This document shows, in pieces, positions 21,739-49,861 of a stretch of DNA of 64,000 nucleotides; the first letter of the stretch is position 1; the number at the start of each line of letters is the position of its first letter. Under the pieces are notes generated by a model. The model saw only the letters and a program-made list of their open reading frames with translations. It was not told where the DNA came from and did no database searches. The DNA comes from Squalus acanthias. Its lineage: Eukaryota. The position numbers were made by a program, and so were the translations under genes. The DNA lies in NCBI GenBank assembly GCA_030390025.1, contig CM059443.1:55490001-55554000 (forward strand). Direction: 5' to 3'.

Positions 21739-22606
21739 GTGTCTTAGTGAGGTTCTGAGAGTCTCCGGATCATTAAATCATCATTTTCCTGTTTTTCTTG
21801 TCTGTTTTTTATGCTAATTTCCATTTTCACAGCAGAGCATAAGTGTGTGAGGAGGAGGTGGTGAAGGAAAGTATTGAACAACCCACCACTCAGTTAAGCA
21901 CACAGGCTGTTCATAACTCCTACATTTGTGAAATGATGGGATGAGATCTTGCACACTGTATTTGTTTTGCCTTTGCCATCCATAGTTGAAAATAATGGAA
22001 TGGAACCATGGCTGCACCTACCATATGATATCAAACCAAGGGGTACACACTGCTGAAATGTGGGACTACTGATGGAAGCCATATGGCCCCTGTCCAGTTT
22101 TTACCTGATCCAGTTCACTGCTTAGATATGTTTCCCTAAACTCCTGGCTATAAAGGGAAGAAGGAAATAAAATTGTTGTTTACTTTTGAGATGTCATAAT
22201 AATGTTACCACCATATATCATGCAGCTAAATATACTTCAGACTGTAGTAAGATTGCTAAGGCCTTCATTAAAATAGCTGACAAAGTAATTTTACATGGAT
22301 GCGTTAGTTATTATTCAGTAAGAGTTGAATCCTTATCTGTCCGATATAGTCTCCCTCACATTCTCTCCCTCTCTGGTGTGTACCCTCCCTTTTTAAAGAT
22401 CATATTTGTAATTTTATTAGACAAAATTCTGTGATGAGACCCTAGGAGAAAAAACTAGGCATGTCACCTATTATCATGATGCGGAGATGCCGGTATTGGA
22501 CTGGGGTGGACAAAAGTGAGAAGTCGCACAACATCAGGTTATAGTCCAACAACTTTATTTGAAATCACAAGCTTTCGGCGCGCTGCTACTTCGTCAGGTG
22601 AAGACT

Positions 22607-22643
22607 TCACCTGACGAAGGAGCAGCGCTCCGAAAGCTTGTGA
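22607..22643 (+). ncRNA. Minimal type I hammerhead ribozyme motif
   Basis: TCAC-CTGACGA-A-GGAGC(AGC)GCTCC-GAA-AGCT-T-GTGA; all helices are intact and helix III (AGCT) is palindromic. Confidence 0.8.
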
Positions 22644-22705
22644 TTTCAAATAAAGCTGAGAAGTCGCACAATACCAGGTTATAGTCCAACAGTTTTATTT
22701 AAAAT

Positions 22706-22741
22706 TACGAGCTTTCAGAGCTGCTGCCCCTTCGTCAGGTA
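22706..22741 (-). ncRNA. Minimal type I hammerhead ribozyme motif (variant)
   Basis: Minus strand TAC-CTGACGA-A-GGGGC(AGCA)GCTCT-GAA-AGCT-C-GTA; helix I covaries (TAC/GTA versus CAC/GTG). Confidence 0.72.
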
Positions 22742-23082
22742 GAGGTACAGTGAGGGAATCTATTACACAGTATATATACACAGAGAGCGACTTGTCTGCA
22801 GAGATACAATCCGTCAGGAAGGCACTGCATCAAAGACACATCAGAGCACAGCCAAGACAATGAGGTGGGTCACATGGGGTCCAACGTGTCAAATGCTGCC
22901 GTCTGCAGTTGAGGTCCTAACTTTTTTTTTGTTTGTTTTTTTTTGGTGTTTTTTTTAAAAACTGGAAAGACAGACAACGATGTCGCGTCACGTTCTGTAG
23001 CGTGACATGAACCATCATTGTCAAATAAAGCTGTTGGACTATAACCTGGTGTTGTGCGACTTCTCACCTATTATCATGTAAT

Positions 23083-23535
23083 GTCAGCTGTGGCCCAGTG
23101 GGTAGCACCCTTGCCTCTGAGTCTAGAAGGTTGTGGGTTCGAGTCCCACTCCAGAGACTTGAGCGCAAATATCTCGGCTGACGCTCCCAGTGCAGTGCTG
23201 AGGGAGTGCTGCACTGTCGGAGGTGCCGTCTTTCAGATAAGATGTTAAACCGAGGCCCCTCAGGTGAACGTAAAAGATCCCATGGCACTATTTCGAAGAA
23301 GAGCAGGGGAGTTATCCCCGGTGTCCTGGGCCAATATTTATCCCTCAATCAACATCACGAAGGAAACAGAATATCTGGTCATTATCCTGCTGTTTGTGGG
23401 ACCTTGAAAATTGGCTGCCTCGTTTCCCTACACTACAACAGTGACTACACTTCAAAAAGTATTAGCTGTACAGTATTTGGGATGTCCCGAGGTCGTGAAA
23501 GGTGCCGTATAAATGAAAGGCCTTCCTTCTTTCTT
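23083..23535 (+). mobile_element. SacSINE1-like Deu-SINE
   Basis: Family match. Confidence 0.85.
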
Positions 23536-48976: not shown

Positions 48977-49658
48977 CTTGTATTTATCTACATTACAACA
49001 GTGACTACACTTCAAAAAGTACTTCATTGGCTGTAAAGCGCTTTGGGACGTCCTGAAGTCGTGAACGATGCTATATAAATAGCAAGGCCTTTCCTTTTTT
49101 TCCCCCTTTGCTTTTGGCAAATTACATTGCAACTCCGAGGGAACAAATTCACTAGGAACCTAACTGACACATTAATAAATGAATGTAAGCCACAGTTGGA
49201 GGTAAATTTTGGTGCGTAACTGCTAAAATAGTGTAGCGTATAGCATAATAGTGTACCGCAGTCCATTATTCAGTCCAGTGATGATTCAAGTTCAGAAAAT
49301 ATTTCACCTCTCATCTTTGTTCCCAAAACCGCGCTCTCTGTGCACTTGTGTCAGGACACAGCTACTTTAATCATCTAGTGCCGCAAGTCTGCTCGTGCCC
49401 TTAATAAGTGTCAGTCGCCCACTCTCTGAGTCAGATGGTTGTGGTTTCAAGCACACTCTGGATGTGAGCACAGAATTCATTGCAGTGCTGAGGGACTGCT
49501 GCCTTGTCAGAGGTGCCGCCTTTAAGAAATGAATGTTAAGCTGAGGGCCCGTCTATCTGCTCGGGTGACCAAAAGAACAGGATTCATATGATAACTTTCA
49601 TGTCCTCCGGGGGCATCCTGAAACTTCTCACCGCCAATGAATCACTTGCGGAAGTGCA

Positions 49659-49861
49659 CAAATGTGAGAAGTCGCACAACACCAGGTTATAGTCCAACAG
49701 CTTTATTTGAAATCACAAGCTTTCGGAGCGCTGCTCCTTCGTCAGGTGAAGTGAAGAGATGCATATAGGCGCAGCATATATAGTCAGAGAACACTGCCAG
49801 ATGATTACAGTTAATCTTTCCAACTGCCCTTTATCGCACCTCGGCAGAGAGATTCATTGCT
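49659..49861 (-). mobile_element. Short Penelope-like insertion with an intact hammerhead (49713-49749, minus)
   Basis: 8-bp TSD GAAGTGCA at 49651-58 and 49862-69; minus strand TCAC-CTGACGA-A-GGAGC(AGC)GCTCC-GAA-AGCT-T-GTGA. Confidence 0.82.

Follow-up and report, generated by a model that had tools for sequence, protein, structure and literature searches.

The window, a stretch of 64,000 nucleotides from the genome of Squalus acanthias, harbours at positions 22464 to 23078 a Penelope-like element (PLE) insertion into which a second PLE copy has been inserted. The outer insertion is bracketed by an exact 15-bp direct repeat, the target-site duplication (TSD; 22464-22478 and 23064-23078). Within it, a left arm of 88 nt on the minus strand (22516-22603), made of pLTR leader, pairs with the two parts of a right arm on the plus strand, 22605-22658 (54 nt, 94%) and 23034-23067 (34 nt). 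The arms are centred on the single base A22604 and the foldback has a length of 220 bp. A base-by-base comparison confirmed all coordinates that a sequence-only reading of this DNA had given for the 15-bp repeat, the arms and the nested 13-bp repeat. To these we add a PLE tail (22479-22515, minus strand), which is present on the left arm only and comprises the last ~40 nt of the leader; the final 3-4 nt of the left copy of the duplication correspond to the tail end as well. In the parent elements the tail terminates at the ORF start codon, and its end would represent the second of two reverse transcriptase (RT) start sites if a two-site scheme described for another PLE (PMC11167929, in the part available) can be transferred.

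The left arm misses the predicted +1 by one base and contains a hammerhead motif (22601-22565). At the junction (22603-22604, plus strand) A22604 is the predicted transcription start, lying in an initiator-like TCACTT with a TATA box at -30 in the parents, while G22603 occupies the position of an extra G or, alternatively, is the first base of the left arm. The first part of the right arm (22604-22658) carries a minimal type I hammerhead that is intact (22607-22643) and is predicted to be cut after 22639. The second part (23034-23067) finishes at what would be RT start site 1 and shares its final 4 nt with the outer duplication. Both direct repeats share 2-4 nt with the element ends. The locus as it stands is dead, ordinary debris. 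Directly to its right lies a tRNA-like SINE head (23086-23400), which we take to resemble the Deu-SINE group. A non-inverted, 5'-truncated copy of the outer subfamily at 49654-49855 (minus strand) has kept its TATA box and an intact hammerhead and shows an imperfect ~13-nt duplication.

The inner insert (362 nt) is flanked by an exact 13-bp repeat (22646-22658 and 23021-23033), the final TG of the left copy also matching the end of the inner element. Its tail-less PLE part (22659-23013, minus strand) includes a hammerhead (22741-22706), a TATA repeat (22771-22778) and the 3' UTR together with the end of the ORF and its stop (23013-22988). Homology with other copies continues up to 23013 and covers the last 8 ORF codons and the stop, which contradicts the earlier description of this piece as ORF-less. 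Over bases 1-355 the top 30 genomic matches show 93-100% identity; beyond base 355 they extend by 0 to >1,500 nt into coding sequence. This variable extension and the existence of full units of 3.05 kb identify the insert as a 5'-truncated autonomous copy. Judged from these alignments, the inner piece is a later, ordinary insertion of an autonomous sister subfamily, and its reading as an independent nested insertion with its own 13-bp duplication is upheld. The remaining 7 nt (23014-23020, plus strand) are filler at the inner 5' junction, the homology of other copies ending at query base 355 of 362. The filler looks like the last bases of the tail in opposite orientation and is possibly the trace of an abortive second priming of a few bases.

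The sequence-only reading had also suggested that the element targets its own terminus beside the AATAAA. Non-tail ends at most 25 nt after the AATAAA were found in 12 genomic matches, 10 of them at the base used in the window, and a second TSD copy is present within the fetched flank in 6 of these 10 loci. Recurrence at this base is thus real, whereas the frequency of self-nesting (~1 per 6,000 arms) speaks against a targeting strategy. As uniform insertion would roughly be expected to give ~0.5 events per base, 12 events over 26 bases represent no net excess; locally, the base used forms a hot spot at which 2 nt agree with the end of the element. A symmetrised target motif (C|T, AT-rich, A|G), derived from 29 sites with a 12-nt TSD out of 61 found, ranks the AATAAA region within the top 1-3% of window positions, in a different register from that of the nested copy. 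It was rejected as a full account of the hot spot, since the register used is not singled out. In another nested case (L065:1357-1811) a foldback lies within an inner-subfamily foldback at a different pLTR position, with a 12-nt duplication.

The parent element and its hammerheads

In the 3.7-Gb genome searched, parent units of 3.05 kb are organized as pLTR-ORF-pLTR, the pLTR-ORF junction having 593 matches. The single ORF encodes an RT domain (Pfam E 6e-9) together with a GIY-YIG domain at the C terminus, whose Pfam match (E 2e-4, 22 bits) lies just below the cut-off of 22.6. These units support the PLE origin proposed for the outer and inner pieces. The ORF has two cysteines between the VVY and YIG blocks of the GIY-YIG motif and, upstream of GIY-YIG, a C-x4-C-x2-C linker. 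According to the available part of PMC8557442, a CX2-5CxxC linker is assigned to Neptune/Nematis and absent in Penelope/Poseidon; the parent element carries such a linker, which would place it with Neptune/Nematis. Its insertions have the features of EN+ PLEs, namely inverted 5'-truncated copies, a one-sided tail and a TSD of variable length. Head-to-tail arrays of 3-4 full units at ~3.14-kb spacing (C2:211213573-211223018 and C2:175562959-175569275) are candidate active source loci. Among 30 loci containing the ORF start, five (L157, L163, L167, L173 and L181) stop 72-82 nt into the ORF, and at least in L157 and L167 the stop point is followed by another leader beginning near +1. This suggests a preferred template-jump or a third start site, which could build partial tandems.

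All three hammerheads noticed initially can be read directly from the DNA. The plus-strand motif at 22607-22643 consists of helix I TCAC/GTGA, CUGACGA, one extra A, helix II GGAGC/GCTCC, GAAA, AGCU and a CUU triplet. The left-arm motif on the minus strand has helix II broken by two private substitutions, and the inner minus-strand motif has TAC/GTA in helix I, a CUC triplet and GGGGC/GCTCT in helix II. The elements of a minimal type I hammerhead are all found: CUGANGA, an extra base, helix II, GAAA, a palindromic helix III, NUH and helix I. An Rfam scan of the locus at E<=10 gave no hammerhead match and only hairpin-driven matches to miRNA families, which are artefacts of the foldback. Monomer folds of the three motifs are not more stable than shuffled sequences (z -0.6 to 0.9), as expected for minimal motifs. 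A transcript of the foldback would, by prediction, bury its hammerhead within a duplex of 89 bp. We also considered a minus-strand dimer ribozyme formed by the inner and left-arm motifs and rejected it, since the left-arm motif is impaired and, by prediction, engaged in pairing.

Variation was analysed in 296 hammerhead arm records, whose loci are not a random sample. Helix I is CAC/GTG in 236, TAC/GTA in 41 and TAC/GTG in 3 of these records, the triplet is CUU in 245 and CUC in 48, and N7 and the length of loop II vary. The G-U changes in helix II of the inner motif comprise one shared variant and one CpG-type C>T confined to 2 arm records, the window copy being at least one of them. The helix I covariation is one compensatory change inherited by a parent pLTR subfamily, and the overall variation is that of a fold conserved in the leader of the parents. 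The hammerhead comes from the parent leader and appears to be under selection there, and the copies are not delimited by it. The covariation pointed out in the sequence-only reading is therefore real as fold conservation at the level of subfamilies in the parent leader, and does not hold as a property of tiny ribozyme elements.

Foldbacks across the genome

Using a gapped pattern we found at least 2,727 short head-to-head foldbacks in the genome; all genome counts given here are exact-match lower bounds, with rows listed mostly from the start of contig C1. The 31-nt junction of the window copy has 228 exact genomic copies and its reversed control none, demonstrating that this foldback did not arise by chance. 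The best 40 of 3,042 candidates for the outer piece are 96-97% identical across the junction. Most copies measure 213-230 bp, so that the expectation of a recurrent short length class with TSDs was borne out. The foldbacks lack a TATA box and promoter.

Counted by eye, the first 50 foldback loci listed fall into 35 kinds of junction, and 8 of the 50 have that of the window. At least 7 arm haplotypes share the window's junction, and TATA-bearing parent arms contain most of them as well. This diversity of junctions and haplotypes led us to reject a single master as the origin of the 228 identical junctions and, together with the occurrence of the tail on either arm, indicates that foldbacks are made again and again. 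The foldbacks do not show a single inherited structure of constant junction and polarity, as would master-derived MITE- or SINE-like families. A fixed polarity of tail and central base, seen among top BLAST hits, vanished in loci picked by their junction and reflected selection bias. The outer and inner pieces are two ordinary insertions of a very abundant PLE and not a self-spreading ribozyme element.

We then analysed the ends of 98 insertions, 58 of which are two-ended with 3'-type ends; the other 40 have an unresolved or 5' end. Of the 58, 56 join a tail end to a non-tail end; a nested pair carries two tails and one insertion carries none. For 30 loci selected solely by their junction, the complete arm bears the tail in 21 and the partner arm in 8; one locus is tail-less and none has a tail on both arms. 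A TSD of at least 10 nt is present in 56 of the 98 insertions, with a mode of 12-13 nt and an AT content of 73% compared to 54% in the flanks. This rule of one tail per insertion matches, by analogy, what is reported in the accessible part of the study of PAc, the Poseidon element of Anolis carolinensis (Frangieh et al. 2024, PMC11167929): this element both cuts and extends the two strands, and two internal RT start sites flank its tail.

Two proposed templates and a predicted capped start

We propose, with a probability of about 0.72, that each stub is made afresh: both ends of a 12-13-nt staggered cut would prime on sense leader RNA, and the two cDNAs would stop at the predicted cap and be joined head to head. 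In such a scheme a TATA/initiator promoter would start the RNA 7 nt before the hammerhead core, and the PLE protein, possibly as a dimer, would cut both strands ~12 nt apart. One DNA end would prime at the tail end and the other ~40 nt upstream, and uncleaved RNA would be copied, often from two different molecules. Opposite the cap the RT would then add a C, and 0-2-nt microhomology would serve to join the ends.

One question is whether one template or two are used. The loop-II length variant, which also marks parent subfamilies, differs between the arms in 12 of 51 foldbacks, compared to 41% expected if the arms were independent and a background arm difference of 1.1% per site. At a G/A site, after four low-identity pairs were dropped, the arms differ in 3 of 48 foldbacks, where independence would give ~49%, and at two loci (L109 and L067) they differ at several linked sites. 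Since the loop-II and G/A markers give different mixing rates, recurrent slippage is suspected and may inflate the discordance at loop II. An explanation that we consider unlikely is snap-back self-priming, in which one cDNA or antisense RNA folds back to serve as its own template, and trimming of one arm by the endonuclease accounts for the tail being one-sided; the antisense-RNA version was proposed by Arkhipova et al. 2013 (PMC3846280, seen in part). It would account for the agreement of the arms at the G/A site in 45 of 48 foldbacks, for the more frequent location of the tail on the arm reaching +1 (21 of 29, p=0.024) and for the palindromic junctions common in the inner subfamily. However, the tail lies on the arm short of +1 in 8 of the 29 junction-picked copies and in the window copy, and a tail-less cDNA copying itself cannot supply a tail. 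Moreover, arms of mixed subfamilies occur, and a loop or stem able to snap back is absent at most junctions. Taken together, the mixed arms and partner-arm tails argue for two RNA-templated cDNAs rather than one folded cDNA.

Another question is where the arms stop. Of 100 arms listed, tallied by eye from rows filtered by the last letter of the pattern, 57 read on along the parent and 17 leave right after the +1 base, 13 of the latter continuing with C. Genome-wide, 2,524 matches have C after +1, compared with 265 for the T control, a 9.5-fold difference. In sense terms the extra C is a G ahead of the A in TCACTT; the partners that follow it are diverse, and several junctions have the extra base on both arms. 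Among 87 arms with a TATA, its first base precedes the hammerhead core by 37 nt, equivalent to -30, in 24 and by 37-40 nt in 83, although the spacer sequence differs between subfamilies. A full-length copy (L121) starts at the equivalent A; many others among the 30 ORF-start loci have a longer upstream pLTR or are truncated elsewhere. From the DNA we infer that the A of TCACTT is the putative capped transcription start. Four contig sets that may derive from RNA cover the element. In L1, capped full-length insertions are recognizable by an extra G (PMC11702581, in the part available), and TATA with TCACT has been noted in a rotifer pLTR (PMC3846280, likewise), while a TATA-less internal promoter was reported for Drosophila Penelope (PMC2377424). 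The extra C could instead stem from terminal addition by the RT or from a joining bias, as most partner arms begin with C.

Double priming might also hold with the stop reflecting an RT pause past the hammerhead fold or an otherwise processed RNA end. We regard this as improbable. The stop is 7 nt from the catalytic core and 57 of the 100 listed arms read past it; in the inner subfamily, where the last letter of the pattern removed most parent-like rows from the profile, stops cluster at the same place but spread over ~8 nt, and the signal of the extra C is less sharp. Against this, TATA spacing, initiator-like sequence and the 9.5-fold bias coincide at one base, and full transcripts, through their 3' pLTR, should give read-through past +1. 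Of 62,244 matches, 100 arms were listed, and none of these 100 terminates where the hammerhead would be cut, which fits uncleaved RNA as template, as described in the available part of the PAc study (PMC11167929). At L078 and C1:2662997 the first 15-20 nt of the leader are repeated at the junctions, as if the RT had re-jumped at the RNA 5' end.

Relation to known systems

Inverted pLTRs, one-sided tails and hammerheads in PLEs have already been published. A literature search covering mainly the main texts of non-subscription papers yielded neither cap-bounded PLE foldbacks nor two-template priming. The origin of tandem and inverted PLE insertions is called still undefined in PMC8557442 (seen in part). 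Among the closest systems are Pen2a/Pen2 of Adineta (PMC3846280 and PMC8557442, both in part), which share the head-to-head inverted pLTR with TATA, TCACT and hammerhead, the one-ended 30-40-bp tail and a TSD. In contrast, the present insertions consist of two leaders of ~90 and ~130 nt only, occur in thousands of copies, and show a single-base stop hot spot with an extra G. The explanation published for Adineta, self-priming on an antisense template, predates the PAc biochemistry.

With PAc the present family would have in common the cutting and extension of both strands, two RT start sites bracketing the tail and an uncleaved template, and it shares AT-rich targets that include its own pLTR. 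The PAc ORF begins inside the hammerhead, whereas that of the present parent starts ~120 nt downstream at the tail end, and the present element has the CX2-5CxxC linker. In the portion compared, the PAc account neither links the two sites to the two strands nor describes inverted products. Our use of PAc is an analogy across clades, as PAc is a Poseidon and the present element bears a Neptune/Nematis linker. L1 twin priming (PMC11702581, in part) is similar in that the second DNA end primes RT, the inversion has an intact TSD and complete 5' ends carry an extra G; there, however, the two cDNAs span adjacent RNA segments, while here the same segment is duplicated.

At even odds, two-ended integration may be the default for PLEs: an asymmetric RT-endonuclease dimer would carry two sense RNAs, prime on both strands of a 12-nt staggered cut, at one tail boundary each, and copy up to the cap; PAc is predicted to be a dimer (PMC11167929, in part). 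If true, this would explain head-to-head inversions and the one-sided tail, recombination between two RNAs at each insertion would explain the fast variation of PLE hammerheads, and the stubs would map the promoter at single-base resolution. The thousands of young stubs provide countable rules (one tail per insertion, a +1 stop with extra G, mixed arms, no cut-site ends) and so document, in a form that can be tested, the way in which these little-understood elements integrate; the rules translate into an in vitro test of the insertion mechanism. Stub hairpins can be mistaken for MITEs, miRNA precursors or retrozymes.

The initial proposal of a non-autonomous, retrozyme-like foldback family, with a few palindromic masters moved in trans and RNA processed by the ribozymes, would suit the 228 exact junction copies, the tight length class with TSDs, the trans integration driven by solo pLTRs in Adineta (PMC3846280, in part) and the descent of non-LTR retrozymes from PLEs (bioRxiv 10.64898/2026.07.22.740005, in part), but is most improbable given 35 junction kinds in the first 50 loci listed, the many haplotypes sharing the window's junction, a tail on either arm and never both, the missing internal promoter, the absence of cut-site ends among 100 listed arms, a hammerhead predicted to lie within an 89-bp duplex and units that are head-to-head rather than tandem. 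Non-LTR retrozymes, as described in the accessible part of that preprint, are likewise PLE-derived and ORF-less with type I hammerheads; they form head-to-tail tandems with one hammerhead per unit, whereas here a head-to-head pair with a TSD is found, and cleavage does not set the unit ends in any of the 100 listed arms.

The minimal type I hammerheads of PLEs (Cervera and de la Pena 2014, PMC4209133, in part) share with ours the conserved core, the extra base between 9 and 10.1, G10.1-C11.1, the palindromic helix III and covariation at the family level. Here helix I has only 3-4 bp and helix II 5 bp, and the circular-template idea of that study finds no support in the present copy ends. In Schistosoma, pairs of PLE hammerheads on opposite strands lie 100-700 bp apart (same source). 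Elsewhere in the window, two hammerhead-like cores (10955 and 36149, plus strand) are almost identical to each other, differ from the present ones in sequence family and probably belong to another PLE.
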